64,000 bases of DNA, from contig CAVQRN010000002.1 in NCBI GenBank assembly GCA_963715255.1, positions 113,446-177,445 on the forward strand, written 5' to 3'. The notes beneath the pieces are model-generated. The model made no database searches, was not told the DNA's origin, and saw nothing but the letters and a program-made list of their open reading frames with translations. The stretch is from an uncultured Actinomycetota bacterium (GTDB taxonomy: Bacteria > Actinomycetota > Acidimicrobiia > Spongiisociales > UBA5794). This document shows, piece after piece, positions 26,768-63,513 of the stretch (its first letter is position 1; each line of letters starts with the position of its first letter). Both the position numbers and the translations under genes were made by a program.

Positions 26768-26799
26768 CTACTCCGCTACTCGGCTACTCCGCTACTCCG
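26768..26799. repeat. 8-nt tandem array, 4 units (CTACTCCG / CTACTCGG)
   Basis: Read directly: ctactccg ctactcgg ctactccg ctactccg. The UDG stop codon (cta at 26776-26778) is the start of unit 2. Confidence 0.9.
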
Positions 26800-27489
26800 C
26801 CTCTGATCAACCAGTTCCCGCGCACGACGAAAGACACGATCCAACATCTCCTCCGTCAGTCTTCCCGTGAACGTGTTCTGCTGGCTTGGGTGGAAACTGG
26901 CCAGAACTACGGGACCGTCCAAGACGCCGATCTCCAGGCCATGAGCGAATGGCGGTCTCGGCTTCGGCACATCATGCTCGGTGTCAGCGAGGTATCGCCA
27001 GATCGATCGGTAGGCGAAGTCGCCGAGCGCCACCAGCACCGATGGCGCAAGGATGGCGAGTTCCCGGTCGAGCCACGCCGCACACGCGTCTCGCTCCTCG
27101 ATCGTGGGCTTGTTCTGCGGCGGGGCACATCGGACTGGTGCCGTTACCCACGCTCCGGAGAGCCTCAATCCGTCGTCACGACCCGAGGACTCGGGCCGAT
27201 TCGCGAAGCCGGTTCGCCACATGGCTCGGTAGAGCCAGTCGCCGCTGCGATCGCCGGTGAACATCCGCCCGGTCCGGTTTGCACCATGGGCCGCGGGAGC
27301 AAGACCAACGACGACGAGTCCGGCGTGCGGATCGCCAAAGCCCGGAACGGGTCTCCCCCAATACTCCTCGTCGACGAACGCCGCCCGCTTGTTCGCGGCG
27401 ACCGTCTCCCGCCACGCGACGAGGCGCGGGCAGCGACGGCAGTCGACGATCTCCTCCGTCAGGAGCGCGAGTTCGTCGACATCACCCAT
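26776..27489 (-). CDS. Uracil-DNA glycosylase, family 5 (UdgB-like, Fe-S)
   Basis: CRRCPRL, GLAPAAHGANRTGRMFTGDRSG (family-5 type motif), HPSQQN. Start trimmed to MGDVDELALL (ATG 27487-27489). The last residues, SSGVAE*, are encoded by the repeat array. Confidence 0.8.
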   Translation of the reverse strand: MGDVDELALLTEEIVDCRRCPRLVAWRETVAANKRAAFVDEEYWGRPVPGFGDPHAGLVVVGLAPAAHGANRTGRMFTGDRSGDWLYRAMWRTGFANRPESSGRDDGLRLSGAWVTAPVRCAPPQNKPTIEERDACAAWLDRELAILAPSVLVALGDFAYRSIWRYLADTEHDVPKPRPPFAHGLEIGVLDGPVVLASFHPSQQNTFTGRLTEEMLDRVFRRARELVDQRRSSGVAE

Positions 27490-28987
27490 CGGGAGGCAGG
27501 AGTCCGGCCGGATACGAGGCGGCGTTCGACCACAGCATCCATCCGTTCGCGCGATCGTCAACTCTGCTCTGGATGTCCCGAACGTCAGAGGTTGAGATCG
27601 TCCACGTCTGGATCCACGGTCGGTAGTAGGCGAATCCCTCGAGTCGCGAAAGGCCGCTCACCAGCGCGGACTCGACGATGTCGGCTGCGTGGTCGTTGGG
27701 ATCGGTGTACCCCTTCCAACCCGACCCGTAGTTGGTCGAATACAGCATCGGGCTCAGTACGTCGATCGTGCGAGACATGAGGCCGGGAAGCTGACCGACC
27801 CCCTCGTCGGTTCCGGACTCGAGCGTGATACCCAGCAGACTCGCTGCAACGCCACACCGCGGGCTCAGCACCAGGTACGCACGCTTCAGGAACGCCAGGA
27901 TCGAGGCGACACGGATCTCCTCGGTGTAGTCATCGTCGAACACGGCGGTCGACACGTCGCCGCCGAACGGAAACGACGCGAAGTCGAATTGGATCTCATC
28001 GAAGCCGGCCCGACAGACCTCTTCTGCGAGCGCCACCGGATACTCGTACGACACCGGATCGGTGGGATCCATCCACGCATCTCCGTTCCGCGTGCGCCAC
28101 AAGTCCGAGGTCCCCTCCTCCATCACTGCATGATCGGGCTCGGCCAACGCCATCGGTGTGTCCTGGAATGCGACGATCCGGGCGATCTTGTACAGATCGT
28201 GGCCATCCATGTCTGCAATGATCTCGGACAAGTCGTACTGGAGCGTCACGGCAGAAGCCTGGTGGGCGCCCTCGACCGTGGTGTCGTGAAACACCGTGCC
28301 GAACTCGTCCTTGACGTCCACGACGAACGCATTGATACCGGTCGAGTCGGCCATGGCAAGGAGCCGCTGCCAGTGCTCGGAATCCCCTGCGGCGGATCCG
28401 CTGACACGCACGCCGTGCACGACGATGGGCTCCATCGTCGTGTCGATCTCGCTCGTCGAGCCGTCCCACGGCACGCTCGCGTCCTGCCACGTCGAGCGTG
28501 TGAGGGAGAGTTCCCCCGGTATCGCCCGGACGATTTCGAACAGGCCGTCGTCGTTCGTCACTTCGCGGCCTTCGCCGAGCGTAACTGCAACCCCAGGCAG
28601 TGCGACACCCCGATTGGTCGATACCCGGCCCGAAAGCACGACCGGCTCGAGACGGAATTCGATGCGATCCTCTCTGGGCTGATCGTCGACGATCTCGCTC
28701 TGCGGTTCAAATCCCGGGGCAGACACCTCGATGGTCGTCGAGTCCTGGGACCAGACAAAGGCGGGTACCCCTTCGCCGGTCTCGAACACGGAAGCCCCCT
28801 CAACGGCGATGTCGGCATCGAGCACGCTCAGATCGTCGCCGGCAAGGACCACGACTTCGATGGTCGGCGGTCCGACCTCTGGTGGGCGAAGTGAGGACGC
28901 GTCGAGCGGAGCCGGGCTGGTACAGCCGGCCGCAGCGATGGAGAGGAGGGTCATCGCAAGAGCGAAGTAGCGTGTGATTCGGATCAT
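27482..28987 (-). CDS. Lipoprotein with putative glycoside-hydrolase-like TIM barrel (DUF4015-like)
   Basis: Lipobox MIRITRYFALAMTLLSIAAAGC. The GINAFVVDVKDEFG and FDEIQFDF segments resemble the DUF4015 putative glycosyl hydrolase domain (from memory). The ORF-track extension to 29548 is antisense to the sigma gene. Confidence 0.65.
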   Translation of the reverse strand: MIRITRYFALAMTLLSIAAAGCTSPAPLDASSLRPPEVGPPTIEVVVLAGDDLSVLDADIAVEGASVFETGEGVPAFVWSQDSTTIEVSAPGFEPQSEIVDDQPREDRIEFRLEPVVLSGRVSTNRGVALPGVAVTLGEGREVTNDDGLFEIVRAIPGELSLTRSTWQDASVPWDGSTSEIDTTMEPIVVHGVRVSGSAAGDSEHWQRLLAMADSTGINAFVVDVKDEFGTVFHDTTVEGAHQASAVTLQYDLSEIIADMDGHDLYKIARIVAFQDTPMALAEPDHAVMEEGTSDLWRTRNGDAWMDPTDPVSYEYPVALAEEVCRAGFDEIQFDFASFPFGGDVSTAVFDDDYTEEIRVASILAFLKRAYLVLSPRCGVAASLLGITLESGTDEGVGQLPGLMSRTIDVLSPMLYSTNYGSGWKGYTDPNDHAADIVESALVSGLSRLEGFAYYRPWIQTWTISTSDVRDIQSRVDDRANGWMLWSNAASYPAGLLPPDG

Positions 28988-29021
28988 GGTTGCCGGTAGG
29001 CCAGGAAAGCGTAATGAACCG

Positions 29022-29050
29022 TTGCCGATGACGCGGACGCGTGATATGTT
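29022..29050 (+). promoter_or_regulatory. Candidate sigma-70-type promoter of the sigma factor gene
   Basis: TTGCCG (29022-29027), 17-nt spacer, TATGTT (29045-29050), about 40 nt upstream of the ATG. GAGGAG RBS at 29081-29086. Confidence 0.3.
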
Positions 29051-29089
29051 CAGACAGCTCTCTCCGAAAAGAGGGGGGAAGAGGAGCAC

Positions 29090-30019
29090 ATGGCTGAGCG
29101 TGGACGGGTGACCGCAGCAGCGGACGCCGTCGGTCGGTACCTCGGACAGGTATCGGATCACGGCCTGCTCGATGCCGAGGACGAGATTCGTCTCGCCCGA
29201 ACCATGGAGTCGGGCAAGAAGGCGCAACGACGACTCGAGTCGGGCGATCCTGTCGAGGCAGCCGAACGAGCTTCGCTGTATCGAATGGTCGAGATGGCAG
29301 ATGAAGCGAAGGACATCTTCATCCGCTCGAATCTCCGGCTCGTCGTCTCGATCGCAAAACGCTACACCGGACGCGGCCTCGACCTGCTCGACCTTGTCCA
29401 GGAAGGCAACCTCGGGCTCATTCGCGCGGTCGAGAAGTTCGACTGGCGCAAGGGCTTCAAGTTCTCCACCTACGCCACCTGGTGGATTCGCCAATCCATC
29501 ACACGCGGCCTGGGAAATCAGGGCAGAACGATCCGGCTGCCGGTGCACATGGTGGACGTCGTTCGCACCGTGCAGGAGGCTGAACTGAGCCTGCAGGAGC
29601 AGCTTCGCAGAGCGCCAACCGTCTCAGAGATTGCCGAAGTGAGCGGTCTCGACGAAGACCGGATCGAGATGGCACGGACTACACCAGGCGACACGATCTC
29701 GCTCGACCGACCGGTCGGCGAAGAAGGCGATGCTCAACTCGGCGACTTCGTCGAGGACGAGGCGACCCCCGATCCGTTCACCGTCGTCGCCGAGATCGCG
29801 CGTTCCGAAGAAGTGTCCAAGGCGCTTGGCGTGCTCGAGGAGCGGGAGTGTACGGTGCTCATCATGCGATTCGGAATCGGCGGGAACCCGCCACGGACGC
29901 TCTCCAGCGTTGGCGCCGAACTCGGAATCACACGAGAACGCGTGCGGCAGATCGAGAACCGAGCGCTCGGAAAACTCCGGCACCCAAGCGCCCTCTACGA
30001 CCTGAGATCGCTGCTTTGA
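29090..30019 (+). CDS. RNA polymerase sigma-70 family factor, group 1/2 (SigB-like, short N-terminus)
   Basis: Regions 1.2-4 are present: NLRLVVSIAKRYTGRGLDLLDLVQEGNLGLIRAVEKFDWRKGFKFSTYATWWIRQSITRGL, RTIRLPVHMVD, LGITRERVRQIENRAL. Confidence 0.9.
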   Translation: MAERGRVTAAADAVGRYLGQVSDHGLLDAEDEIRLARTMESGKKAQRRLESGDPVEAAERASLYRMVEMADEAKDIFIRSNLRLVVSIAKRYTGRGLDLLDLVQEGNLGLIRAVEKFDWRKGFKFSTYATWWIRQSITRGLGNQGRTIRLPVHMVDVVRTVQEAELSLQEQLRRAPTVSEIAEVSGLDEDRIEMARTTPGDTISLDRPVGEEGDAQLGDFVEDEATPDPFTVVAEIARSEEVSKALGVLEERECTVLIMRFGIGGNPPRTLSSVGAELGITRERVRQIENRALGKLRHPSALYDLRSLL

Positions 30020-30066
30020 GAAGTAGATCAGGAGCAGGTAGCAAGCAGCAGTAGACCAGTACCGCT

Positions 30067-30134
30067 CTACTCCGCCACTCCGCCACTCCGCCACTCCGCT
30101 ACTCCGCTACTCCGCTACTCCGCTACTCCGCTAC
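30067..30134. repeat. 8-nt tandem array, 8 units plus partial (5x CTACTCCG, 3x CCACTCCG)
   Basis: Read directly between the converging sigma (stop 30019) and nucS (stop 30138-30140) genes. Confidence 0.95.
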
Positions 30135-30137
30135 GAA

Positions 30138-30797
30138 CTAGAACAACCGGAGTACGTCCGAGTCGGCCCCTTTCAACGTCTCGTAGTCGACCTCCGTCCA
30201 GGTTATTCCTCGATCAGTTGCGAGCGTCCTGGCCTGAGGCTTCACCGCTTGAGCCACGAAGATTCCACGCACCGGGGCGAGACGCTCGTCCCGGTTGAGG
30301 AACTCGAGATACCTCGTGAGTTGCTCGACACCGTCCATCTCGCCACGGCGCTTGATCTCGATGGCAACCGTCTCTCCTGAGGCGTCTCGGCAGAGCAGAT
30401 CAACCGGTCCTATCGGCGTCGGGTACTCCCTGCGGATCAGCGTCATCCCCTCCTCGATCGCTTCCGGCTGCTCGGCAAGCAGCCGCTGGAGTTCGAGCTC
30501 AACGCCGTCCTTCTGAAGGCCGGGATCCTCTCCCAATTCGACGGTTGTGTCCATGTGGATCTCGTGAAGATCGATCGTGAGCTGCTCCCCTTTGCCGTTG
30601 GTGAGGAACCAGCGTCCACCTTCTTCGACGAGGTGGTTGGGTGCGTTCATCCAGTTGAGCGGCTTGTAGGCGCCGGCTTCGGCATGGACAAGAAGCGATC
30701 CGTCGGCCTTGATGATGATCAGCCTGGTGGCACGTGGCAGGTGCGCAGCAAGGCGACCTGCGTAGTTCACGGTGCAGTCTGCAACGACGATGCGCAT
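30138..30797 (-). CDS. nucS: Endonuclease NucS (EndoMS, mismatch-specific)
   Basis: [21 protein letters not shown]... N-terminal domain and a RecB-like C-terminal nuclease domain (VDLLCRD...VAIEIKRR). Confidence 0.9.
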
Positions 30798-30884
30798 GAA
30801 TCGAAAGCGTACCCGCGGTCCGGCCGCTTCGGGCCAGGACGTCCCGGCGAGACCGGCCGCCGCCCTCCCGACCTGCAGCGGGCG

Positions 30885-32288
30885 TCAGCCGACCGAGCCC
30901 TCCATCTGAAGCTCGACGAGCCGATTCAGCTCGACGGCGTACTCCATCGGCAACTCCTTGACGATCGGCTCGATGAATCCGGCCACGACCATCGCCGTCG
31001 CTTGTTCCTCGGTAAGACCTCGTGACATCAGGTAGAAGAGTTGGTCCTCCCCCACCTTCGACACCGTCGCTTCGTGACCGATGTCGACATTCGACTCTTC
31101 GATCTCCATGTACGGATACGTGTCGGACCGAGAGTCCTCGTCGAGAATCAGAGCGTCACACCGGACGAAGGAACGGGCGTTCGTCGCCCCCGGTTCGACA
31201 CGGACAAGTCCACGGTACCCCGCACGGCCACCGTGGATCGAGATCGATTTGGAAGTGATGAGCGATGTCGTGTTCGGGGCAACGTGGACGATCTTCGCAC
31301 CCGCGTCCAGGTGCTGCCCGGCCCCGGCCATCGCGATCGAGAGGATCTCTCCGTGGGCACCCTCACCCATCAGCCACACCGCCGGATACTTGGCGGTGAA
31401 CTTCGAACCGAGATTGCCGTCGACCCACTCCATGGTCGCGTTCTTGTATGCGACGGCGCGCTTCGTAACAAGATTGAAGACGTTGTTCGACCAGTTCTGG
31501 ATCGTCGAGTAGCGGGCACGGCCGCCTTCCTTGACGACGATCTCGACCACGGCGGAGTGAAGTGAGTCGGACGAGTACACCGGGGCCGAGCAGCCCTCGA
31601 CGTAGTGAACGAACGCGCCTTCATCAACGATGATCAACGTTCGTTCGAACTGACCCATGTTCTCCGCGTTGATGCGGAAGTAGGCCTGGAGCGGCTCGTC
31701 GAGATGCACGCCGGGGGGGATGTAGATGAAAGACCCACCAGACCAGACCGCGGAATTGAGTGCCGCGAACTTGTTGTCGTTCGGCGGGATGATGGTGCCG
31801 AAGTACTCCCGAACGATGTCCGGGTACTCGCGAACGGCGGTGTCCATGTCGGTGAACAGCACCCCGAGTTCCGCGAGATCCTCACGGTTCCGGTGGTACA
31901 CCACTTCACTTTCATACTGCGCAGTTACGCCGGCGAGGTACTTTCTCTCGGCTTCGGGGATGCCGAGTTTCTCGTAGGTGTCCTTGATCGAGTCCGGGAC
32001 CATGTCCCAGTCCTGAACCTGACCCTCGGTCGGTTTGATGTAGTAGTAGATGTTGTCGAAGTCGATCTCGTTGAGCGCCCCGTCGCCGACCCACTGAGGC
32101 AGCGGCTTGCGCAGGAATCTCCGGTACGACTTGAGTCGGAACTCGAGCATCCACTCGGGTTCCTTCTTCATTCGCGACATGTCACGAATGATCTGCTCGC
32201 TCAGACCCCTCTCGGGCTTGTAGACGTAGTCTTCTTCGTCGGACCAACCCAGTTGGTAGGAGCCGAGATCGAGATCGACGGTGGTCAT
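30885..32288 (-). CDS. sufB: Fe-S cluster assembly protein SufB
   Basis: Highly conserved throughout, e.g. [51 protein letters not shown]. Confidence 0.95.
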
Positions 32289-32377
32289 GATGCTGTACTC
32301 CCCGGATTTGCACTATGGGCGTAGTGTCATTGTACGGTGCCCGTTGGACGAAGGGGACGGAGATTCGAGCGAGCGGC

Positions 32378-32430
32378 TTCGCCGGGGCAGGAACGAGTGG
32401 GAGTGGGGAAAACCGAACCGCCCCGGCGAA
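32378..32430 (-). terminator. Perfect 11-bp inverted repeat (stem-loop) between eis-like gene and sufB
   Basis: ttcgccggggc (32378-32388) and gccccggcgaa (32420-32430) with a 31-nt loop, downstream of the eis-like stop and upstream of sufB. No U-tract. Confidence 0.4.
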
Positions 32431-32482
32431 CCGCCGCTCATACCCTCAACGCTCTCGCAGCGCCGTTCGTTCCCTTGCGGGA

Positions 32483-33709
32483 TCAGAACATGTCCTCGCA
32501 CCACGGTGCGACGTCGCCGCGAAACATGCGGCCGAGCAGGGTCACCGAATCCTGATCCCCGCGCACGAGGCCCGCCTCGGCCATAGCGTGCGCGTCACCG
32601 CCGCCGAGATACAGCGCTGCCAGCTCGGCCGCACCAAGCGTGAGGTCGATCGCCTGTTGATCGGTGCGCCGGCACGTTCCGATGCCCTCGGTCACGCCGA
32701 GGGCGAACGATCCTCCGCACTCCGGCAAGAACTCATCCTCGATAGCGAGATGGAGCGTCCCATCCGCTGCGTAGCCTCGTGCCCCGAGGGCGGTCGGCAC
32801 GTCGAGGATTCGGAGATACAGCGCATCCAAGCGCTTCCGCGTGATCCTTCGATGGTCGGGCACCTTCCATCGAAGGGGGTCACCGACCGGCATGTTCCAG
32901 TAGTGCACGTTGGGAAACAGGTCGATGTTCATGAGAAATCGCCAAATGCCGGTGTGAGCGGCAGATGACGCGGTGATGATCTCACGGATTCTGATCTTCC
33001 CATCCGGGAAGGCGCCGGACCAATCGCCTTTCTGCCGATAGATCGCGTAGCCATCGGGGATGCCGTCGGTCTCGTGGAGGAGGTATCGGCGGGAAGAGAA
33101 ACCGCCCGGCCTGCGCTTCTCCGGATCGAAGAACACGTCGATCTTCCACGCCGCCGCGTTGCGGGTCAACATCCCGGGGATCCGGACCCGCATCTCGTCG
33201 TAGAGGGCAGGGAGTACACCGCGCGCCTCTTCCACATCCACCAAACGGATCGTCCCGGCGGAACCCTCGACGGCGGCGCGTCCCTGTTCCATGTCGACTT
33301 CTTCGTTCTCCGTCGCAACTCCGAACCCATACCTGCCGTAGATGATGCTTTCAGATGCCCACAGTCCGGCGAGTGGCTCGTTTCGCGCGATCGTGTCCAT
33401 CAGGTGATCTCGCATCATCGCCGTGAGCACGCCGCGGCGCCGGTGGGTCGGAGCCACGGTGACGACCGTCGTTCCTGCCATCGGAACACTCCCGCCACTG
33501 GGGACCGTCACGTCGAAGGGGAAGGCGCCGAGCGTTCCCACCATCGCGTCACCGTCGAAGGCTGCAACCGTTCGATCTCGCGGGAACATTTCGAAGAACC
33601 ATTCCTCCGGCATGATCGTTCCGTCGAAGTCGTCACCGAAGCCTGCCGACACGGCGGCCCGGAAGGTCAACGCTTCGTCTTCGCGAATGGGGCGGGTTGT
33701 GATCTCCAT
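32483..33709 (-). CDS. Eis-like GNAT N-acetyltransferase with C-terminal SCP2-like domain
   Basis: About 408 aa, with tandem GNAT-like regions ([15 protein letters not shown]) and a sterol-carrier-like C-terminus, the architecture of enhanced-intracellular-survival-type acetyltransferases. Confidence 0.75.
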
Positions 33710-33790
33710 GATGGGCCGAGACTACCGGCGATCGCGGAGCCTCACCGATGGCGATACGATCCACAGCGTTCGCACCCGGGAGGCAGAGCC

Positions 33791-34582
33791 ATGGGACCGG
33801 TGAGGATCGCCGTCCAGATTCATCCGCAGCACACCGACTACACCGGTATTCGTGACACCGTCATGCAGGCCGAGGACATGGGTGTTGACGTTGTCTACAA
33901 CTGGGATCACTTCTACCCGCTCTACGGCGGTGATCCGGATCCCAATGTGGGGAAGCACTTCGAGTGCTGGACGATGCTCGGGGCCTGGGCAGAGCAGACC
34001 AGTCGGATCCAGTTCGGTGCGCTCGTCACGTGCAATTCGTATCGCAATCCCGAACTCCTCGCCGACATGGCCAGAACCGTCGATCACATTTCCGATGGTC
34101 GGTTGATCCTCGGGATCGGGTCCGGTTGGTTCGAGAAGGACTACGACGAATACGGCTACGACTTCGGAACGAAGGGAAGCCGGCTCCGCGATCTCGATGC
34201 TGCCATGCCTCGGATCAGGGACCGGCTCGAGCGGCTCGATCCCCCGCCGACCCGTCACATTCCGATCCTGATCGGTGGCGGTGGAGAGAAGGTAACGCTA
34301 CGAATCGTCGCCGAATACGCAGACGTGTGGCACACCTTCGGGGACCTCGAGACGGTCGCCCACAAGTCGAAGGTGCTGAACGAATGGTGCAATAGGGTCG
34401 ATAGAGATCCGTCAGAAGTCGAGCGCTCGATCGGCATGCAGGCAGCGAACTTGGATCGAGCCGACGACTACCTCGCTTTGGGTATCACCGAATTCACCCT
34501 CGGCTTCACGGGTCCGGATCTGGATCTGGAGCCGGCGAAGGCGTGGCTGAAGTGGCGGGATTCGGTGAATGGGATGGTGTAG
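33791..34582 (+). CDS. LLM-class F420-dependent oxidoreductase (second copy)
   Basis: [14 protein letters not shown]..., [29 protein letters not shown] 33791 preceded by GGGAGG. The upstream part of ORF 33074..34582 is antisense to the eis-like gene. Confidence 0.8.
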
Positions 34583-34614
34583 CGGAGTAGCCGAGTAGCG
34601 GAGTAGCCGAGTAG
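34580..34614. repeat. 8-nt tandem array in TAG-sense orientation (TAG CGGAGTAG CCGAGTAG CGGAGTAG CCGAGTAG)
   Basis: Read directly. The first TAG (34580-34582) is the LLM gene stop codon. Confidence 0.9.
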
Positions 34615-34661
34615 CTCGGTGGTCAACAATTGACCAGCGTCGAACGATCGTGCACGAGCCC

Positions 34662-34687
34662 CGGAGGCACCACGACGTGTGCCTCCG
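34662..34687. terminator. Perfect 9-bp stem / 8-nt loop hairpin between convergent genes
   Basis: cggaggcac-cacgacgt-gtgcctccg. It sits between the two inverted 8-mer arrays. No U-tract on either side. Confidence 0.45.
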
Positions 34688-34707
34688 CTACTCCGCTACT
34701 CGGCTAC
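34688..34707. repeat. 8-nt tandem array, inverted copy (CTACTCCG CTACTCGG CTAC...)
   Basis: Reverse complement of the 34583-34614 array. The PPOX-family gene stop (cta 34696-34698) is the start of unit 2. Confidence 0.85.
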
Positions 34708-35355
34708 CTCTCCCACGAACCGTCGTACGGACGGTGGGATGCCGACGCCGTCAAGGTTGTGGGGGTCCGGTTCCGGGACGCCCGGCGTGAGGGTCAGCGG
34801 GATGACGCCGGCCCAGATGGGGAGGTCGTAGTCCTCGGGTTCGTCACCGACGTCGTTCTCGCTGATCTTTGCCGAGTACTCCTCGATCGGGACGGCAACA
34901 ACAAGCGTTCCCTTGTCCTCGCTGCGCGAGGGAGGCCTCGCTTCGGACCACCGGCCCGGGAGAGCGGCGTTGGTGATGGCCTTCAACGCAATCATTCGTT
35001 CTTCCGGTGAGTCGACGAATCGCGCCGTGCCGAACACCATGGCCGACCGGTAGTGCATCGAATGGTGGAAGACCGACCGCGCGGCGACGATCCCGTCGAG
35101 AAGCGTCGCCGTCACGGTGACGTCGGCACCCTTCTTCATCACATGCAGCATGCGACTCGCAGGAGAGCCATGGAAGTAGAGGGTGTCACCGACCCTGGCG
35201 TGGATCGTGGGAATCACGAACGCCGAGCCGTCTGCGACGAATCCGACATGGCAGATCAAGGCCTCATCGAAGATCTCATCCACGATCTCTCGGTCATACC
35301 GTGCCTTCTCTCGTGCCCGTTGGACCCGCGTGCGCTCGGTGGATGGTTCGGTCAT
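34696..35355 (-). CDS. Pyridoxamine 5'-phosphate oxidase family (FMN-binding split-barrel) protein
   Basis: RARYDREIVDEIFDEALICHVGFVADGSAFVIPTIHARVGDTLYFHGS is typical of PPOX-class flavin-binding proteins. The C-terminal VAE* is encoded by a repeat unit. Confidence 0.8.
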   Translation of the reverse strand: MTEPSTERTRVQRAREKARYDREIVDEIFDEALICHVGFVADGSAFVIPTIHARVGDTLYFHGSPASRMLHVMKKGADVTVTATLLDGIVAARSVFHHSMHYRSAMVFGTARFVDSPEERMIALKAITNAALPGRWSEARPPSRSEDKGTLVVAVPIEEYSAKISENDVGDEPEDYDLPIWAGVIPLTLTPGVPEPDPHNLDGVGIPPSVRRFVGEVAE

Positions 35356-35482
35356 GGAGCCATCCTAGGAAGGCGCACACCACGATCGGGGAGTCACGAC
35401 GGGCTCGGTACTCACGGACGCGAACCGTGTCGCGTCGAAGCGCCGGCCGTCCAGCCGATGCTCCGACAGCGTCAACTGGAGA

Positions 35483-35665
35483 TCAGTCCTTCTGATCGTC
35501 GATGAAGTCTTTCGCCTTGTCGGCACCAGTCTCGATCTGATCGGTTGCCTTGCCACCGGTCGCTGAGTCGGCCAACTTCGCGCCCTTGTCGACTACGTCC
35601 TTGGCCGCGTCGGCATGATCGCCGGCCAGGTCCTTTGCCTTGTCGAACATGTCTCCGAGTCCCAT
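35483..35665 (-). CDS. Small K/D/A-rich protein, MT0933-like (annotated 'antitoxin' family) / CsbD-like
   Basis: 60 aa: MGLGDMFDKAKDLAGDHADAAKDVVDKGAKLADSATGGKATDQIETGADKAKDFIDDQKD. Composition and repeats are typical of this actinobacterial small-protein family. Confidence 0.6.
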   Translation of the reverse strand: MGLGDMFDKAKDLAGDHADAAKDVVDKGAKLADSATGGKATDQIETGADKAKDFIDDQKD

Positions 35666-35858
35666 ATCTCCTCGTTCTCTTGCTTGGTCGGTCCGATCGT
35701 ACCGCTACCCGGGACCCCACCTCCTGGATCGTCACTGTAGCTACTCGAGTGGATGGCTCATCGAGCATCTCGGATCTGCAATATGCTGGTTGGGTGGCGA
35801 CTCAATGCAACTCCAAGGTCCTTCCTCTGCGGCTCGGTTCACGCGATCGCCCAGATGC

Positions 35859-47452: not shown

Positions 47453-47492
47453 GTAGCTGAGAGGTCCCGGTGTATTCGCTCTGGCTGAAGGA

Positions 47493-47564
47493 GATCAGTA
47501 GTCCAGTAGATCAGTAGATCAGTAGATCAGTAGATCAGTAGATCAGTAGATCAGTAGATCAGTC
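47493..47564. repeat. 8-nt tandem array, 9 units (7x GATCAGTA, GTCCAGTA, terminal GATCAGTC)
   Basis: Read directly. It gives 8 TAG triplets on the + strand at 8-nt spacing. The menE stop (tca 47559-47561) lies in the last unit. Confidence 0.95.
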
Positions 47565-53772: not shown

Positions 53773-53863
53773 CGAAACGTGATGCTACCGGGCGGCTGGG
53801 AGTGTGCGGAGAGCTGTCGGCGCTGGGGAGGCAGTGGCGCGACCGAAGACCACCCCCGAGCAA

Positions 53864-54472: not shown

Positions 54473-54517
54473 TCTTCGTCCCTCTCGTCGGCGTTCGGCG
54501 CCATTGTTGCAGTTTCG

Positions 54518-57277: not shown

Positions 57278-57346
57278 ACTGATCCCTTTCGTAGTCTTCT
57301 CTCGTCTGATTGTCGCAGCCCCACGATATCGTCAATACTCGGGTTG

Positions 57347-58123
57347 ATGACCACGGACGTCTCCTTCATCGGCCTGACCCTCGCTTCATCGCTCGTGTTC
57401 GTGGCGATCGTCCTTTCGATGTGGCAACGGCTTGGTCTCGAACGTCAGATCCTGTGGGCTTCGGTCCGAGCCCTTGCCCAACTACTCGCCGTCGGCGTCG
57501 TGCTGGCGGTTCTTCTCCGCCCTGGTCAGTCTCTGTGGTGGTCGATCGCCTGGGTGATCGCAATGCTCCCCTTCGCAGCCGACGTGGTTGCCCGCCGCGC
57601 CCCGGAGGTACCTCGGGTTCGCTGGCTTGCCCTCGCCGCTTTCAGCGTCACATCGCTTGTCGTACTCGGACTGCTGTTCGGCCTTCGCGTGTTCCCTCTC
57701 GAGCCCCGCACGCTCGTTCCGCTCGCCGGGATGATGATCGGAAACTCGATGACGGCGACCGTCCTCGTTGCAACGCGAATCGTCGCTGAGTTCAAGGAGA
57801 AGCGCCCGCTCGTCGAGGTCCGACTCGCGTTGGGATTCCGGGCGAACGACGCGTTCCAACCCTATCTGCGTGCTGCATTGAAGACTGCCCTCGTGCCGCA
57901 GATCGAGACAACGAAAGCCGTTGGGATCGTGTTCCTTCCCGGCGCGATGACCGGCCTCATCCTCGCCGGCGTCGACCCGATGGAAGCCGTGCGGGTGCAG
58001 GTTGTGGTCATGTATCTGGTCCTCGGCTCGGTCGCAGTCTCGGCAAGCACCGTGGCGCTCGGCTTGAGCCGAACGTTGTTCACGCCCGATCAGCGAGCGG
58101 TGCATCTGCCCGACGACCGATAG
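57347..58123 (+). CDS. FetB/YbbM-like ABC permease (UPF0014 iron-export family)
   Basis: Multi-TM protein with LVPQIETTKAVGIVFLPGAMTGLILAG, typical of UPF0014. ATG 57347. The long upstream ORF-track extension is antisense to the acetyltransferase. Confidence 0.8.
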   Translation: MTTDVSFIGLTLASSLVFVAIVLSMWQRLGLERQILWASVRALAQLLAVGVVLAVLLRPGQSLWWSIAWVIAMLPFAADVVARRAPEVPRVRWLALAAFSVTSLVVLGLLFGLRVFPLEPRTLVPLAGMMIGNSMTATVLVATRIVAEFKEKRPLVEVRLALGFRANDAFQPYLRAALKTALVPQIETTKAVGIVFLPGAMTGLILAGVDPMEAVRVQVVVMYLVLGSVAVSASTVALGLSRTLFTPDQRAVHLPDDR

Positions 58124-58127
58124 GCTG

Positions 58128-58781
58128 GTGGTCGTGAAACGCGCCGTGCTCGCTCTCGTACTCGTGCTCTCCTCCTGCACCGGCGGTGGGACATCGTCGG
58201 ATGCGAACGGCAGCTCCACGCTCGAGCCGACAACTCCCGAACCGACGACGACGGTACAGGGCAGCGATGTGGAATCCACCGTGCCGGATACGACGTCGAC
58301 CACGGTCGTCACCGGCAACGCCAGATTCGTCATCGGGAGTGTGGTCTTCGGCGAACGGGGAACGATCGAGGTTGGGAACCTTGGACCCGATACCGGTGAC
58401 CTCACGGGGTTCTGGGTCGCCATCCATCCGTACTACCTGGAGCTCCCGTCGACAATCCTCTCTCCCGGCAAGGCACTCGTCATCAGCATCGCGGAGGACG
58501 CTGATCCGGACCTCGTGATCCCTGCGGCGGGTCTCTTGCCAACATTGATGAGCGCCTCCGGAGAGATCGGTCTCTACTCGAGCGGCGATTTCGGAGACCC
58601 CGGCGCCATCGTCGATTATGTGGAGTGGGGGTCGACCGGTCATGTTCGCTCGAACGTTGCGATCGCGGCCGGCCTCTGGCCGGCAGATCAGGCCATCGTC
58701 ACCGACGGATCGGTCACAGGACTTACATCCGGTGACCGCTCAGAGCCGGGACCTCAGGGCTGGTCGCCAACTGTGGAGTAA
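58128..58781 (+). CDS. Lipoprotein with lamin-tail-like (LTD) domain
   Basis: Lipobox VLALVLVLSSC, T/S-rich linker, and the C-terminal GEIGLYSSGDFGDPGAIVDYVEWG resembling LTD domains. Confidence 0.55.
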   Translation: MVVKRAVLALVLVLSSCTGGGTSSDANGSSTLEPTTPEPTTTVQGSDVESTVPDTTSTTVVTGNARFVIGSVVFGERGTIEVGNLGPDTGDLTGFWVAIHPYYLELPSTILSPGKALVISIAEDADPDLVIPAAGLLPTLMSASGEIGLYSSGDFGDPGAIVDYVEWGSTGHVRSNVAIAAGLWPADQAIVTDGSVTGLTSGDRSEPGPQGWSPTVE

Positions 58782-58805
58782 TCCGTATCGAGGTTCGGAT
58801 ACCGA

Positions 58806-60404
58806 CTATGCCAGGGCCACAAGGTCGAGCATCGACTCGTCGAAGTAGGCCCGATCACCTTCGGGCATCAGGATGACCCGATCCGGTTCGAGCGCCGCCA
58901 CGAAGTCGGTGTCATGGCTGACGAGAATGAGCGTTCCCTCGTACTGCCTGAGGGCTTCGAGGAGCGCTTCCTTCGCCTGAGGATCGAGGTTGTTCGTTGG
59001 CTCGTCGAGAAGCAACACGTTGTGACCGGTGACGACCAGTCGTGCCAAGGCCAGCTTCGTCTTCTCGCCGCCGGACAGAGTCCCGGCATCTTGATCGAAC
59101 TTGTCGGCGAGGAGGAAGTGACCCAGGACAGATCGCAGGTCCCGATCCGGCAGCCGGCTGGCTCCCCGCATGATGTCGAGCACCGCTACGCCGGCGGTGA
59201 TGTCTTCGTGTTCCTGGGCGTAGTAGCCCGGTGCCGCCCGATAGCCGGTTTCGACGGATCCAAGGTCCGCGTCCTCGACGCCTGCGAGGATCTTCAGGAG
59301 CGTCGTCTTGCCCGCGCCGTTCAGACCCATGATGATCAGCCGTTCCTCGCGGTCAACGTCGACATCGATGTCGACGAATACAACGTTGTGTCCATACGCC
59401 TTGGCAAGGCCCTCCGCCCGCAGCGGGGTTCGTCCTGAGGGGATCGGTTGCGGGAACCGGAGCGCCACTCGCTTGCGATCGCGCCCTATCTCGACGAGAT
59501 CGTCCTGCATGCGCCGAACTCGTGTCTCCCACGTGCGGGCACGACGAGCCATCGATTCGGACGAGCCTTTGAAGCGTCGGATACCGTCCTCGAGGCGTGC
59601 GATCTTCGCCTCCTGCTGGCGCCGTTCGCGCAAGCGCTGGGTCCTCCTCTGGTCACGCTCTTCGAGGTAGTACGAGTAGTTGCCTCGGAAGGGTTCGATG
59701 CGACCGCCCTCGACCGCTAACACCGACGTTATCGACTCATCGAGCAGCGGCAGGTCGTGTGAGACGATCAGAAGGCCGCCTTCGTAGTCGGCGAGGAACC
59801 CCACCAGCCAGGCCTTTGCGTCCATATCGAGATGATTCGTCGGCTCATCGAGGAGCAACGTTGTGGTCTCTGCAAAGAGGATGCGGGCAAGTTCGACCCG
59901 CCGTCGCTGCCCGCCGGACATCGTCGTCACCGGCTGGTCGAGTTCAATCGCCCCGATGCCAAGGGCGGAAGCGAAACGTTTGGCTTCCGCTTTCGCGACG
60001 TATCCTCCTCGCACGGTGAACTCATCGTCGAGCCGGCCGAATCGACGGATCAGCCGGTCTCGTTCGGTTCCGTCGACCTCCTCCATCCGCCGGCGGGTGA
60101 CCTCCATCTGTCGTTCGATCGTTCCGATGTCGCGGGCCATCAGCACGCGTTCGAGAGCGGTTACACCCGGATCGTCGAGGTCCTCGAGCGCCGCCTCCTG
60201 TGAGAGATACCCGATGGTGCCGCTTCGTACCACTGAGCCCTCAGCCTGCTCATGCGATCCCTCGAGCGTCCGCATGAGGGTTGTCTTCCCTGCGCCGTTG
60301 GGGCCCACGAAACCGATCCTGTCCCCGGCCTGCACGGAGAAGGACACGTCGGAGAGAAGGCGCCGTGCACCGGCGTCGACAGCGAGATCACGGACGAGAA
60401 TCAT
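58806..60404 (-). CDS. ABC-F family ATPase (two NBDs, no TMD)
   Basis: Duplicated Walker A (GPNGAGKTT, GLNGAGKTT), two signatures (MSGGQRRRV, LSGGEKTKL) and an Arg/Glu-rich interdomain linker. Confidence 0.9.
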   Translation of the reverse strand: MILVRDLAVDAGARRLLSDVSFSVQAGDRIGFVGPNGAGKTTLMRTLEGSHEQAEGSVVRSGTIGYLSQEAALEDLDDPGVTALERVLMARDIGTIERQMEVTRRRMEEVDGTERDRLIRRFGRLDDEFTVRGGYVAKAEAKRFASALGIGAIELDQPVTTMSGGQRRRVELARILFAETTTLLLDEPTNHLDMDAKAWLVGFLADYEGGLLIVSHDLPLLDESITSVLAVEGGRIEPFRGNYSYYLEERDQRRTQRLRERRQQEAKIARLEDGIRRFKGSSESMARRARTWETRVRRMQDDLVEIGRDRKRVALRFPQPIPSGRTPLRAEGLAKAYGHNVVFVDIDVDVDREERLIIMGLNGAGKTTLLKILAGVEDADLGSVETGYRAAPGYYAQEHEDITAGVAVLDIMRGASRLPDRDLRSVLGHFLLADKFDQDAGTLSGGEKTKLALARLVVTGHNVLLLDEPTNNLDPQAKEALLEALRQYEGTLILVSHDTDFVAALEPDRVILMPEGDRAYFDESMLDLVALA

Positions 60405-60431
60405 GGCGGAAAGGTAGAGACGATGCCTGAG

Positions 60432-60501
60432 CTACCAGCCACCAGCCACCAGCCCGACTACCCGCTGCCGGCTGTCAGCCCGACTACCGACTGCCGACTG
60501 C
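60432..60501. repeat. Composite short-repeat tract: 7-mers (CTACCAG CCACCAG CCACCAG; CGACTGC x2) and a 12-nt direct repeat AGCCCGACTACC at 26-nt spacing
   Basis: Read directly. On the minus strand TAG occurs at 60484-86 (the GGDEF-EAL stop), 60458-60 and 60432-34, i.e. 26 nt apart and in three different frames. Confidence 0.7.
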
Positions 60502-62550
60502 CTGGCTGCTCTCTCGTGCGTAGTCGGAGACGAATTCGAGGATCTTGTCACCGGCGATCGGGCGGGAGATCAGGAACCCCTGAATTCGATCACATCCGAG
60601 CTCATGGAGGAAACGGAGCTGCTCCTCGTTTTCGACACCCTCGGCGATCACGTCAAGTCGGAGGGTACGCGTGAGACCGATGATTGCCGAAGACACGGCG
60701 ATTCCGTCCCGGCTGGTGAGACCGTCGGCGATGAATGATCGGTCGATCTTCAGCGTGTCGATCGGAAGTTGGGTCAGATAGCCAAGCGACGAGTACCCCG
60801 TTCCGAAATCGTCGATACTCACCGTGACACCAAGATCCCGGAGTCGCTCGAGTGCACGCCGCGTCTCCTCGAGATCAGTGAGAAGGGTCCCCTCCGTCAG
60901 TTCGACGTCGAGGAATCGGGGGTTGAGTCGCGCCGCGGCAAGCGACGCCACAACCGTCTCAACCAGGTTCCCGGCGCGGAACTGGCGGGACGACAGATTC
61001 ACCGACATCCGCATGGGCGGAAGACCGTTGTCGAGCCAGGATCGCATCTCCAGGCAGGCCTGGTCGAGTACCCACTGGCCGAGTGGAACGATGAGATCCG
61101 TCTCCTCTGCCAAGCGAATGAACGTCTCGGTCGGAACCTTGCCGAATTCGGGATGATCCCAGCGAAGCAGCGCTTCAACCCCGATGACCATCTTCCGCTC
61201 GGTGTCGACCTTCGGCTGATAGTGCAGATACAGGCCTTCGTCGGCGTCGATCGCCTTGCGAAGGCCATCGAGGAGCGTGAGCCGCTGACTCGTGCGCTCG
61301 CGGAGCGCGCTCGTGTAGAACTCGTATGTATTGCGGCCGGCGTCTTTCGCGCTGTACATCGCAATGTCGGCCCCCTTGAGGAGTTCTTCGGTCGTCTCCC
61401 CGTCGAGGGGGTATGCCGCAATCCCCATGGACGACGTGATCACGATGTCCTCGCCACCGACTCGGTACGGAGTGGCAAGCCTCCTCAGGATCTTCGTCGC
61501 AACCTGTCCTGCGTCCTCGACCCGCTGCCCGCCTTCGAGGATCACCGTGAACTCATCTCCCCCGAGACGTGCAACCGTGTCGGACTCTCGAACCGACCCG
61601 ACGATCCGTTCCGCCGCCTGGCGAAGGAGCGCGTCACCAACTGCGTGACCGAGTCGATCGTTCACCTCCTTGAAGCCATCGAGGTCAAGGAACATGAGCG
61701 CAACCACCGAGCCATCCCTGCGCGCACGCGCCACGGCGCTCTCGAGTCGATCAGTGAAGAGGGTTCGATTGATGAGCCCGGTCAACGAGTCGTAGCGGGC
61801 GAGATAGTTGAGGCGTTGCTGATCGAGTTCCCGTTCGGAGCGGTGGACTTCACTGCTCTCCGTCCACGATCTCTGGAGTTTTCGTACCGCCGGTCGGAAC
61901 AAGAACAGGCCTTCGAACACGAGCAGAGCGAGGGTCGCCACGAGCAGGAAGTACTCCGTCTGCTCCAACGTGGCGACCCGCTCCCCCGACGTGCGTAGAT
62001 ACGAGGCCACAACTCGCTGCATCGCGAGCCCATAATCCGCCGACGCGCCTTCCACAACGTCGGCTGCGGCCGATGGGGGCATCCCTCCGACGTCGATCGC
62101 ACGCTGCACGCGATCCGTGGCCGAGACGAAGGCATCGAGCGAGGCTCCAGCCTCGATGAGGAAGCTCTCGGTATCGGTGTTGCTCATTGCCGGAATATCG
62201 AGTTCCGGATCCCCCTCAACGAACGCGCCGTGCACCAGTGAAATCTCCTCGACACTCTCCGCGAACTCACTGCTGAGAGGTTGCGAGAGACCGGCGACCG
62301 CCAGGTTCGACAACTCGGCCACTCGTGCGGCGAGGTATCCCTGCCTGAGCCCATACTCGAGCACCGTGGCATCTCGTGCCTTCATGCTGAAGGTTCGGTG
62401 AGTGACGAATATCGAGAGAACGGCCAGCATGCCGATCAGCACGAGCGCGAGCACGTACCGGCCGACGGGCCGTTCCGGCAGACGTGCCGGGAAGGCATCG
62501 TCCGAATTCGACGCGGTGCGTCCTCGCAGCCACGATCCGGGTATTCGCAT
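60484..62550 (-). CDS. Membrane-anchored diguanylate cyclase/phosphodiesterase (GGDEF-EAL)
   Basis: N-terminal TM and sensor-like region, RLGGDEF GGDEF domain, and an EAL domain (EALLRW, DDFGTGYSSL, KIDRSF). Start trimmed to MRIPGSW (ATG 62548-62550). Confidence 0.9.
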   Translation of the reverse strand: MRIPGSWLRGRTASNSDDAFPARLPERPVGRYVLALVLIGMLAVLSIFVTHRTFSMKARDATVLEYGLRQGYLAARVAELSNLAVAGLSQPLSSEFAESVEEISLVHGAFVEGDPELDIPAMSNTDTESFLIEAGASLDAFVSATDRVQRAIDVGGMPPSAAADVVEGASADYGLAMQRVVASYLRTSGERVATLEQTEYFLLVATLALLVFEGLFLFRPAVRKLQRSWTESSEVHRSERELDQQRLNYLARYDSLTGLINRTLFTDRLESAVARARRDGSVVALMFLDLDGFKEVNDRLGHAVGDALLRQAAERIVGSVRESDTVARLGGDEFTVILEGGQRVEDAGQVATKILRRLATPYRVGGEDIVITSSMGIAAYPLDGETTEELLKGADIAMYSAKDAGRNTYEFYTSALRERTSQRLTLLDGLRKAIDADEGLYLHYQPKVDTERKMVIGVEALLRWDHPEFGKVPTETFIRLAEETDLIVPLGQWVLDQACLEMRSWLDNGLPPMRMSVNLSSRQFRAGNLVETVVASLAAARLNPRFLDVELTEGTLLTDLEETRRALERLRDLGVTVSIDDFGTGYSSLGYLTQLPIDTLKIDRSFIADGLTSRDGIAVSSAIIGLTRTLRLDVIAEGVENEEQLRFLHELGCDRIQGFLISRPIAGDKILEFVSDYARESSQAVGSR

Positions 62551-62640
62551 GATCTCCGATCCGTTCTCGTACGTATCGGCAGGAATCGGCAGAGGTTGAA
62601 TACCTCCGGTTACGATGAGACATCGCAACAAGGAGCGAAC

Positions 62641-63033
62641 ATGACCTTCTGGCAGCTGTTCTTGCTACTGATGATCTTCATACCCCTCATCATGCTGTGG
62701 ATCTTCACGCTCGTCGATCTCTTCCAGCGAGCAGATCTCACCGGGGTCGCGAAGGCGTTGTGGGCGATAGCAATCGTGCTTCTCCCCCTCATCGGCATGC
62801 TGGTCTACTTCCTCCTCCGCGACTCGGAGGCACCGGCAGCCGGCGCTCACCCGGCTGATGATCGGCCGGCATCGGCACCTGCGGCATCATCCGATCCGAA
62901 CGGTTCGGCAATCGGTGCCGCAGACGTCGCCGACCAACTCGAACGACTCGCCGACCTTCGCGACAAGTCGATCCTCACCGACGACGAATTCCAGCGGGAG
63001 AAAGACAAGCTCCTCGGATCTCCTTCGGCGTGA
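62641..63033 (+). CDS. PLDc_N (PLD-nuclease N-terminal TM) plus SHOCT domain membrane protein
   Basis: Two TM helices flanking the LVDLFQRADL...KALWAIAIVLLPLIGMLVYFL motif, and a C-terminal SHOCT-like LERLADLRDKSILTDDEFQREKDKLL. AAGGAG RBS at 62630-62635. Confidence 0.75.
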   Translation: MTFWQLFLLLMIFIPLIMLWIFTLVDLFQRADLTGVAKALWAIAIVLLPLIGMLVYFLLRDSEAPAAGAHPADDRPASAPAASSDPNGSAIGAADVADQLERLADLRDKSILTDDEFQREKDKLLGSPSA

Positions 63034-63383
63034 GTGAAACTGAGACGATCGTGGCGATCGGAATCGTGCTGGTTCCGCTCACCGTCATCTGGCTCCTGGC
63101 TCTCTTCAACATTGTCGCCAGACGGGGAGATCTCTCGATCGGATGGAAGGGCATCTGGTCCGCGGTCGTGATTCTGATTCCGTACCTCGGGGTGCTGATC
63201 TACGCCGTCGTCCGCCCGCCGGCTCAGATGAAGGGGCTTGGTGGCAGCGACCCGACCGTCACGGGTCAGGCCATCGACCAGATCCACCGCCTGACAAGGG
63301 AACATGAGTCCGGTGCGATCACCGACGGGGACTTCGCGTCACGCAAAGCCCTCATCTTTGGCATCGGAGAACCGGCCACCTGA
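63030..63383 (+). CDS. Second PLDc_N plus SHOCT domain membrane protein (paralog)
   Basis: LFNIVARRGDL...KGIWSAVVILIPYLGVLIYAVV and a SHOCT-like HRLTREHESGAITDGDFASRKALIF. The GTG start overlaps the upstream stop (GTGA). Confidence 0.75.
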   Translation: MSETETIVAIGIVLVPLTVIWLLALFNIVARRGDLSIGWKGIWSAVVILIPYLGVLIYAVVRPPAQMKGLGGSDPTVTGQAIDQIHRLTREHESGAITDGDFASRKALIFGIGEPAT

Positions 63384-63471
63384 AGACGGGCAGGCCGTCA
63401 CGGGGTTTCCGGCCACCAGCTACCAGCCTTCAGCAAGACCGGAATCACCCTCCGTCGAGGAGAGAACTCGG

Positions 63472-63513
63472 GCTGGAAGCCGGTAGCTGCTAGCGAAGTA
63501 CTCCGCTTCCAGC
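63472..63513 (-). terminator. 9-bp stem hairpin downstream of tRNA-Leu (large loop, no U-tract)
   Basis: gctggaagc (63472-63480) and gcttccagc (63505-63513) with a 24-nt loop containing ggtagctgctagc and gtactccg, 22 nt from the tRNA 3' end. Confidence 0.35.

Follow-up and report, generated by a model that had tools for sequence, protein, structure and literature searches.

Background

Heptamer and octamer simple sequence repeats (SSRs) near or overlapping stop codons, including inverted pairs between convergent genes, have been published for bacteria (PMC4692102; PMC4679880). Here we describe a set of tandem arrays with an 8-nt unit and the common core CTACT/AGTAG, found in a 64,000-nt stretch of the genome of an uncultured Actinomycetota bacterium (contig CAVQRN010000002.1, positions 113,446 to 177,445), which is called the window below. 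The first-pass annotation of the window found no described element class to match these arrays, but the published repeats supply one. The AGTAG arrays are the 8-nt, stop-bearing case of the known, though little understood, class of long-unit microsatellites in uncultured Actinomycetota, and not a new class of element. They show every defining feature of that class: tandem units, copy-number polymorphism, homogenised units and an intergenic location.

The first described system consists of the G-rich heptamer SSRs GGGAATC of Xanthomonas and GGGGAYT of Nostoc, which occupy many dispersed intergenic loci (Rehm et al. 2015, PMC4692102). They lie on the coding strand, overlapping a stop codon or within 50 bp of one, and form ~70 convergent inverted pairs per genome. 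They are rare in genes and between divergent genes, and their lengths are not conserved between related species (PMC4692102). Like these heptamers, the AGTAG arrays have short, non-triplet tandem units at dispersed intergenic positions, and the commonest CTACT-type unit in other phyla, GGGGAGTA, has the same layout of a G tract plus a loop. However, the units in the window (GCGGAGTA, GATCAGTA) contain at most GG, whereas a G-quadruplex needs four tracts of three or more guanines. This excludes them from the G-quadruplex heptamer class, although the feature is present in the GGGGAGTA arrays. They also differ in carrying a stop codon, with the gene's own stop usually in the first unit, in their period of 8 rather than 7, and in their uncultured actinomycetal host.

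The second system is the TAACTGA heptamer direct repeat of Beggiatoaceae, Cyanobacteria and Bacteroidetes, whose forward strand has stops in every frame (MacGregor 2015, PMC4679880). These stops limit gene-end overlap to 18 nt and shape the genomic distribution of the repeat. Sets are mostly of 2–6 copies, have no predicted RNA structure and lie a few nucleotides upstream of start codons, where a site for a translational regulator was proposed (PMC4679880). The AGTAG arrays are likewise stop-bearing, and single arrays likewise lack RNA structure, but they adjoin stop codons and almost never start codons. The TAACTGA unit itself was recovered in cyanobacterial loci of our scan (as ACTGATA and TCAGTTA).

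An excess of heptamers among prokaryotic SSRs had been noted in 2007, according to its citation in a later paper (PMC4692102), and frameshifting SSR indels at C-termini are weakly selected and create new C-termini (PMC3315296). With prokaryotic long-unit SSRs and variable-number tandem repeats, including the cyanobacterial STRR heptamers, the AGTAG arrays share head-to-tail units of 5–11 nt, copy-number polymorphism, an intergenic bias and tolerance of C-terminal frameshifts. In Geobacter metallireducens, tandem octanucleotide sites (GTTGCTYN x4) are described that occur in pairs, the two sites being on opposite strands and a variable distance apart; binding of a global regulator was proposed for them, and they have ISGme8/9 at a fixed distance (PMC2700814). 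Unlike the AGTAG arrays, they are a sequence-conserved family of 48 sites, with no described relationship to stop codons (PMC2700814). Tandem octamers, about four units and opposite-strand pairing are common to both. REP, BIME and REPIN elements are intergenic, often lie between convergent genes, carry a GTAG tetranucleotide and form inverted pairs. A REP unit, however, is an imperfect palindrome of 20–40 nt, whereas the AGTAG unit is 8 nt long, repeated directly and without a hairpin. Literature searches turned up neither a published account of the AGTAG unit family nor one of a general rule by which stop-bearing units are anchored strand-specifically on stop codons.

Results and discussion

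Position and strand of the arrays

Array sites were collected by scanning 185,579 species genomes of all phyla for four CTACT cores at period 8, which gave at least 120 loci (L001-L120), and by scanning metagenomes for the unit of the lineage (AGTAGCNG x3), which gave 120 further loci among the matches listed. The census holds 226 distinct sites, again among the matches listed. The arrays follow a strand rule: the stop-bearing strand faces the gene, and the array starts at the gene's stop codon. Where the 3' end of a gene reads AGTAG, the array lies at most 5 nt away in 36 of 58 cases for the lineage unit (28 of the stops being inside the array) and in 29 of 62 cases for all phyla, with median gaps of 3 and 8 nt. 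Where it reads CTACT, the same closeness is seen in only 4/41 and 2/45 cases, and the median gaps are 76 and 116 nt. Gene 5' ends rarely adjoin an array. In three of the four orientation classes not one of 109 comes as close as 5 nt, and three of 38 do so in the fourth, the all-phyla genes reading CTACT; median gaps at 5' ends are 61–146 nt. Of 46 stops that fall within an array, 29 are its first core, usually in the form GAG-TAG.

The rule extends to arrays chosen without regard to their unit. Among 98 unselected 7/8-nt arrays with other units, those whose reading in the gene sense has stops in all frames lie at most 5 nt from the gene end in 15 of 38 cases (median 12 nt), as against 2 of 36 for stop-free readings (median 120 nt; Fisher odds ratio 11, p = 6e-4). 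The strand rule thus held in every one of three independent sets. Non-triplet units are nearly excluded from coding sequence, with 3/226, 1/50 and 11/98 intragenic sites in three sets. The genes concerned appear genuine: of ten open reading frames (ORFs) sampled in other phyla, eight belong to ordinary genes (GlnA, MetK, RsgA, PorV, an M48 peptidase and others), with Pfam domains that reach the C-terminus. In all inverted pairs the AGTAG array precedes the CTACT array (9:0), as expected from two arrays each anchored on a stop. The initial proposal of a non-random placement on stop codons with an orientation bias is therefore borne out by the census and the unselected arrays alike, and the arrays are not equally common inside genes or at gene 5' ends.

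The same annotation had described the arrays as a feature of convergent gene pairs, and this does not generalise. For the lineage unit, 65 sites could be classified, of which 25 are convergent, 30 co-directional, 8 divergent and 2 intragenic (background 76 convergent, 309 co-directional, 75 divergent), so that only 38% lie between convergent genes. For all phyla the numbers are 21, 54, 7 and 1 (background 97, 454 and 90). Convergent junctions are nevertheless enriched over background, with an odds ratio of 3.2 (p = 1.4e-4) for the lineage unit and 1.9 (p = 0.026) for all phyla.

Arrays and stop codons in the window

The window has a G+C content of 63.4% and an actinobacterial gene set. Tandem arrays were called with Tandem Repeats Finder (TRF) at a score threshold of 30. 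Five period-8 arrays with the common core were found at four junctions, each made of head-to-tail copies of a single short unit (3.1–9.0 copies, 89–96% matches). These and the associated features are as follows.

A1, 26768-26800, minus strand: TRF unit CTACTCCG x4.1, read on the minus strand as (CGGAGTAG/CCGAGTAG) x4.
Possible decayed AGTAG-like tract, 30020-30066, plus strand: GAAGTAGATCAGGAGCAGGTAGCAAGCAGCAGTAGACCAGTACCG, directly 3' of the sigma-70 stop; low confidence.
A2, 30067-30134, minus strand: TRF x8.5, unit GCGGAGTA, with three units changed to AGTGG.
A3a, 34579-34615, plus strand (AGTAG sense): TRF x4.6, (GTAGCGGA GTAGCCGA) x2.3, the 5' arm of a long inverted repeat.
Two small hairpins between A3a and A3b, 34621-34686: GGTCAA-CAA-TTGACC (34621-34635) and GGAGGCAC-N7-GTGCCTCC (34664-34686).
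A3b, 34683-34707, minus strand: TRF x3.1, the inverted partner of A3a and the 3' arm of the inverted repeat.
A4, 47492-47563, strand not assigned: TRF AGATCAGT x9.0, with TAG in all frames of the plus strand and TGA in all frames of the minus strand.
A5, 60430-60502, minus strand: a separate composite repeat of the 7-mers GGCAGTC and GCTGGTG with a 26-nt period (TRF).

The arrays starting near 26768, 30067, 34580/34688 and 47493, all predicted from inspection, were thus called by the program as well, and the pattern CTACTN3CTACTN3CTACT with up to 2 mismatches has 22 matches in the window against 0.00 expected from 100 shuffles. Apart from these arrays, TRF found no period-7/8 array with at least three copies in the window. 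Two further arrays had been put forward as relatives. The one at a fifth junction (60432-60501) is in fact the different 7-mer/26-mer repeat A5, between co-directional genes, and the one at 63413-63426 has two units only and gave no TRF call at score 30.

The UDG gene stops at TAG 26776-26778, the third core of A1, which encodes the tail RSSGVAE*. The luciferase-like (LLM) oxidoreductase stops at the first core of A3a (TAG 34580-34582), and the PPOX gene at the second core of A3b (TAG 34696-34698), with a tail ending in GEVAE*. As had been noticed, two unrelated proteins thereby share the tail VAE*. The gene for NucS, which had been grouped with these three, stops 3 nt outside A2 (30138-30140). 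The MenE-like gene stops on the minus strand at a unit-encoded TGA (47559-47561) in the terminal unit of A4, as predicted. The strand it reads had been taken to be stop-free, but it has TGA in all three frames; the wider claim that the complementary strand lacks stops therefore fails at A4. The GGDEF-EAL gene stops at TAG 60484-60486 in a mutated unit of A5 (GGTAGTC). Frame analysis agrees with the first reading that the AGTAG strand carries TAG in all three frames. Stop usage at the arrays is 5 TAG to 1 TGA, as against 38 TGA, 13 TAG and 5 TAA in the array-free genes of the window.

The home-made gene caller used for the census misses sigma-70, and the junctions in the window were therefore classified by hand from Pfam results. 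These support the same flanking genes that had been named at the four junctions: an M23 peptidase and UDG at A1, sigma-70 and NucS at A2, the luciferase-like oxidoreductase and a PPOX-type protein at A3, and a CHAD protein and an AMP-binding (MenE-like) protein at A4. A5 is flanked by the 3' end of the GGDEF-EAL gene and the 5' end of an ABC-F gene, at a co-directional junction upstream of ABC-F. The sigma-70 gene (29090-30019, plus strand) stops at TGA 30017-30019. Opposite to it, a 156-amino-acid ORF (29624-30094, minus strand) has coding-like codon statistics and misleads simple gene callers; Pfam backs the sigma-70 frame only. The tract at 30020-30066 was not called by TRF and was read from the sequence directly.

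Other repeats are present in the window. A 9-nt/24-nt repeat (CCGGGGCTG) at 7673-7746 lies in frame inside a long minus-strand ORF (6832-8289); it is a coding repeat and has no relation to the AGTAG arrays. The 7-mer array at 60430-60454 reads GGCTGGTGGCTGGTGGCTGGTAGC on the minus strand and holds the octamer GCTGGTGG, which is the Chi sequence of E. coli, twice. This is probably a coincidence, and no Chi sequence is known for this lineage. A stop-free 7-mer family (GGCGACT/CAGTCGG type) occurs at 60480-60502 and at several intergenic sites of the lineage (L170, L171, L242), beside arrays that do carry stops, so that the lineage has more than one family of repeats.

Copy number and turnover among relatives

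Relatives in the uncultured Actinomycetota lineage were found through NucS homologues on long contigs, with identities from 100% down to 77%. Syntenic loci have NucS identities of 100% (L121-L123), 97–98% (L124-L128), 93% (L647), 88% (L648) and 84% (L649). At the A2 site, relatives with 97–100% NucS identity have one unit (GTAGCTGAG), two units (GTAGCCGA), ~6 units (GTAGCTGA) or the 8.5 units of the window (GTAGCGGA). The difference between 8.5 and ~6 units separates genomes with 99.4% identity (L121 and the window are 99.4–99.5% identical over 20 kb). The filler base at this site (T, C or G) is uniform inside each array and differs between lineages, and the NucS stop is conserved in relatives with a single unit. 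At the A4 site, among contigs with an identical MenE protein, there are nine units in the window and three in L655, which has identical flanks. At least 4–5 units are present in L656 and L657, both of which end inside the array. Copy number in related genomes, which had been suggested as a check, is thus polymorphic at A2 and A4. A1, A3 and A5 are stable within the species: A1 has three to four units in every relative whose NucS is at least 97% identical, and A5 differs by one single-nucleotide polymorphism across five independent contigs.

More distant relatives differ in the units themselves. L647 has arrays at all three junctions, but with other units. The heptamer (GTACTGA)x5 replaces A1 and gives the UDG stop as TGA, the NucS gene is followed by (GAAAGTAG)x12 and CTACGGA-type arrays, and the PPOX and oxidoreductase genes are ended by GTAGTCC and AGTAGAAA arrays. 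L648 and L649 lack arrays at these junctions, and their intergenic gaps are 4–36 nt. The relatives form a natural series of array birth and turnover, from no array through 1, 2 and 6 to 8.5 units and with other units in sister lineages, in which birth has recurred with different units. Because copy number, unit and presence all differ among relatives, the arrays are young, recurrent, hypervariable and dispensable.

The encoded C-termini vary along with the arrays. UDG tails across relatives are ...RRSSGVAE*, ...KVLSTEY*, ...GGSIRS* and ...ATLVG*, and PPOX is 219, 224 or 227 amino acids long. In L128 the first PPOX TAG is GAG, and the protein is 8 codons longer, reaching the next in-frame TAG of the array. 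Of four roles that had been proposed for the arrays, that of slippage-prone microsatellites that remodel C-termini is the only one backed by these data, through the copy-number polymorphism and the varying PPOX and UDG tails.

The ~50-nt spacer between A2 and the sigma-70 stop (30020-30066) is a separate observation. It consists of unrelated sequence in L121-L128, despite flanks that are 99.4% identical. The sigma-70 stop changed from TAG to TGA along with the replacement of this distal spacer in the window, and the replacement resembles a decayed GTAG-bearing array.

The same turnover bears on the idea that the arrays are selected as translational backstops, kept to halt ribosomes that have run past a leaky TAG or arrive in a shifted frame, with TAG in every frame within 24 nt, which would limit aberrant C-terminal extensions. 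The L128 protein is a natural case of such a backstop at work. The sense strand does have stops in all three frames, arrays in the sense orientation have their anchor exactly at the stop codon, and TAG is over-represented at them relative to genome stop usage. However, close relatives have no array, or a single unit, at the same genes, and TAGs decay freely within arrays (AGTGG three times in A2, GGAGC in L121). Arrays of up to 8.5–25 units go far beyond what a backstop would need, and most genes in the window have no array. A three-frame backstop would agree with the data, but one that is kept by selection seems, on this evidence, rather improbable.

An assembly or sequencing artefact is effectively refuted. 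Some short-read contigs do end inside arrays (L656, L657), and several metagenome loci start or end in arrays. However, the same arrays are present in independent ENA, JGI, NCBI and Logan assemblies, with identical arrays from independent samples and assemblers (L121-L123; L650-L654). The arrays are also shorter than a typical read, and the three-unit allele of L655 needs k-mers that are not in the nine-unit allele.

Unit spectrum and control cores

Matches of the all-phyla scan come from many phyla and have many filler triplets. In a viral collection the CTACT core was found at 91 loci. Of the control cores of the same composition, two that lack a stop on both strands gave 37 and 50 loci, one with TGA gave 60, one with TAG in a different context 61, and one with TAA at least 120, so that CTACT is at most 1.5–2.5 times commoner than arbitrary cores of its composition. 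These controls rule out AGTAG octamers as a conserved element shared across phyla. A general enrichment of stop-bearing units among 7/8-nt arrays is ruled out as well, with 27 of 54 observed in the unselected lineage set and 24 expected. The filter therefore acts on position and not on which units exist. In the flanks of the all-phyla matches (L001-L120), arrays with at least 3.5 copies have a period of 7 in 76 cases, against 2 with period 6, 10 with period 9 and 1 with period 10, which is the heptamer excess already on record for SSRs (PMC4692102).

Several observations were made in passing. The period-7 units in L001-L120 are very diverse, especially in Okeania/Trichodesmium and in one Prevotellaceae contig. 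In Bacteroides salyersiae and B. nordii, short inverted pairs of AGTAGTCA/AGTAGTTA octamers, 28–69 nt apart (L016 1959-2214, L020 1179-1264, L055 3174-3304), have stops on both strands and resemble a separate dispersed family. In the viral collection (L476-L554), TTACC cores at period 8 are unusually abundant (at least 120) and are concentrated in contigs of one sample, many of the loci coming from IMG/VR sample 3300045988, which suggests a repeat specific to a phage family. One metagenome locus (L189, 1-251) has (AACCCTA)x35 at a contig end, which is the plant-type telomere repeat (TTTAGGG)n, and at least one locus of the metagenome set is therefore eukaryotic and not from the actinobacterial lineage.

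The arrays could in principle be the footprint or substrate of a sequence-specific machine, such as a GTAG-recognising HUH/Y1 enzyme of the RAYT type, an array-targeting insertion sequence, or a protein that binds RNA or DNA in an 8-nt register. Most units of the lineage contain GTAG, GTAC or CTAC, GTAG is the conserved tetranucleotide of REP elements, and related units recur at unlinked loci. Paired inverted octanucleotide arrays also have insertion sequences at a fixed distance in Geobacter metallireducens (PMC2700814). However, the control cores are nearly as common as CTACT, units with unrelated cores follow the same positional rule, the arrays have no common flanks and hence no element ends, and single arrays lack the hairpin that REP/RAYT systems need. 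No candidate enzyme came to light either, though no search aimed at one, or at a cognate RAYT (Y1 transposase) gene, was made. Such a machine is thus very unlikely.

Other classes of element were excluded on anatomy. A CRISPR array has repeats of 23–50 nt with unique spacers of similar length, whereas here the units are 8 nt and there are no spacers. The REP/REPIN class requires a palindromic hairpin unit, which is absent, and single arrays fold no better than shuffles. Transposable elements, including MITEs, are ruled out since the arrays have no common non-repeat sequence and no defined ends.

RNA structure and transcript ends

Single arrays are unstructured. They fold no better than shuffles (z-scores from +1.5 to -0.8, with -2.5 for the minus strand of A4), which rules them out as hairpin terminators. 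The pair A3a/A3b, on the other hand, folds into a ~30-bp stem at -80 and -82 kcal/mol on the two strands (z-scores -7.8 and -8.1), and both small hairpins within it are present in the minimum-free-energy structures of both strands. This long hairpin has no U tract of the kind that follows the GC-rich hairpin of an intrinsic terminator, and a consensus scan found no canonical intrinsic terminators at the array junctions.

A function at transcript 3' ends was considered on this basis. The C-rich, unstructured strand would load Rho onto the transcript of the opposite gene, and inverted pairs would act as bidirectional terminators or RNA stabilisers. A rut site is a stretch of ~60–80 nt of C-rich, G-poor and unstructured RNA, 3' of the stop on the transcript that is terminated. 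The plus strand of A2 fits the composition of a rut-type site, with 54% C and 12% G over 68 nt and a fold worse than that of shuffles (z-score +1.46). The enrichment of convergent junctions, the stable A3a/A3b stem on both strands and the lack of intrinsic terminators at the junctions are also consistent with this function. A4 and the sense strand of most co-directional sites do not fit, since A4 is C-rich on neither strand (14% and 25% C). Moreover, co-directional junctions make up 46–65% of sites, and at most of these it is the G-rich strand that the sense transcript reads (21:9 and 34:20). Near-identical genomes differ in copy number between 1 and 9, and only 9 inverted pairs were seen among ~260 arrays. 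The same kind of array is common in cyanobacteria, which to our knowledge lack Rho. A transcript 3'-end element is thus quite unlikely. Of the two roles suggested earlier along these lines, Rho loading fails as a general account, and that of arms of bidirectional terminators fits a single inverted pair in the window, the single arrays being unstructured.

Origin and persistence of the arrays

It seems, on balance, probable that the arrays are slippage-generated 7–8-nt microsatellites, which persist where genes stop because every frame meets a stop in them, and which now and then alter a C-terminal tail. Strand slippage in replication or repair would create units of 7–8 nt and resize them. With a stop in the unit and a period that is not a multiple of three, the stop-bearing strand terminates every frame, and translation would end within three units whatever the frame. 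An array that starts on or just after a gene's stop in the stop-bearing sense would then be harmless, whereas an array inside a gene would be damaging and the stop-free strand at a gene end would expose the gene to long read-through. Arrays would therefore arise or survive mainly at stop codons, where the last codon and the stop (NAG-TAG) would usually form the first core. Filtering of this kind, rather than positive selection, would account for the anchoring, and the arrays would have no required cellular function. The arrays expand and contract fast, and the same gene ends have gained and lost them repeatedly, in different units. By-products are C-terminal tails that are short and variable, additional stops in all frames and, on the opposite strand, an unstructured, C-rich tract; where two converging genes both carry arrays, a long hairpin results. 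Loops of 7–8 nt exceed the range of MutS-type repair, and Actinomycetota rely on NucS instead; both circumstances would help the arrays to persist.

Several points weigh against this explanation. Approximately 40–60% of stop-sense arrays begin exactly at the stop, despite intergenic spacers of 50–150 nt, so that neutral placement is insufficient, and either birth or retention must be somewhat enriched at the stop. The array stops are rich in TAG (5 TAG to 1 TGA), whereas seeding from native stops predicts mostly TGA units; the imbalance weakens the idea that a simple duplication of the native stop seeds the arrays. Units of the types GTAGC-NGA and GTAGCTG recur at several unlinked loci of the lineage with no common flanks, which independent random births would not predict. 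Stop-bearing units are not over-represented among the unselected 7/8-nt arrays, and the microsatellite account offers no explanation for the strong excess of periods 7–8 over 6, 9 and 10. Two features of the data also call for caution, in that the collection scans are matches as listed rather than random samples, and genes were called with a home-made, self-trained codon log-odds caller that agrees with 19 of 21 reference calls. The enrichment at stops, the TAG bias, the recurrence of GTAGC units and the preference for periods of 7–8 leave room for a selected backstop or a GTAG-specific process.

A broader form of the explanation is that, across bacterial phyla, stop-bearing, non-triplet 7–8-nt microsatellites preferentially nucleate on the last codon plus stop and act as self-buffering, all-frame stop cassettes, a general and not yet formulated way for the 3' ends of genes and their C-terminal tails to evolve. 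We offer this tentatively and regard it as unlikely, though with an appreciable chance of being right. In this Actinomycetota group and others like it, the cassettes may owe their persistence to positive maintenance, for instance as a guard against read-through of TAG, or their origin to a GTAG-specific process. Either would account for the bias towards TAG as well as for related units that recur at unlinked loci.

Implications

For annotation, the arrays mark gene 3' ends and explain differences between strains in C-terminal tails and in intergenic length. They break short-read contigs, and should not be taken for a new regulatory or defence element. The repeat class itself is already known; the generalisation that stop-bearing, non-triplet repeats are anchored strand-specifically on stop codons was not found in the literature. 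For the evolution of such repeats, the lineage provides a clean natural series for the birth and turnover of long-unit microsatellites, together with a simple positional rule, and it is well suited to the study of the long-noted excess of 7–8-nt units in bacterial genomes. Should selection, and not filtering, lie behind the rule, the rule would have a bearing on the ways in which bacteria contain the products of read-through and frameshifting.

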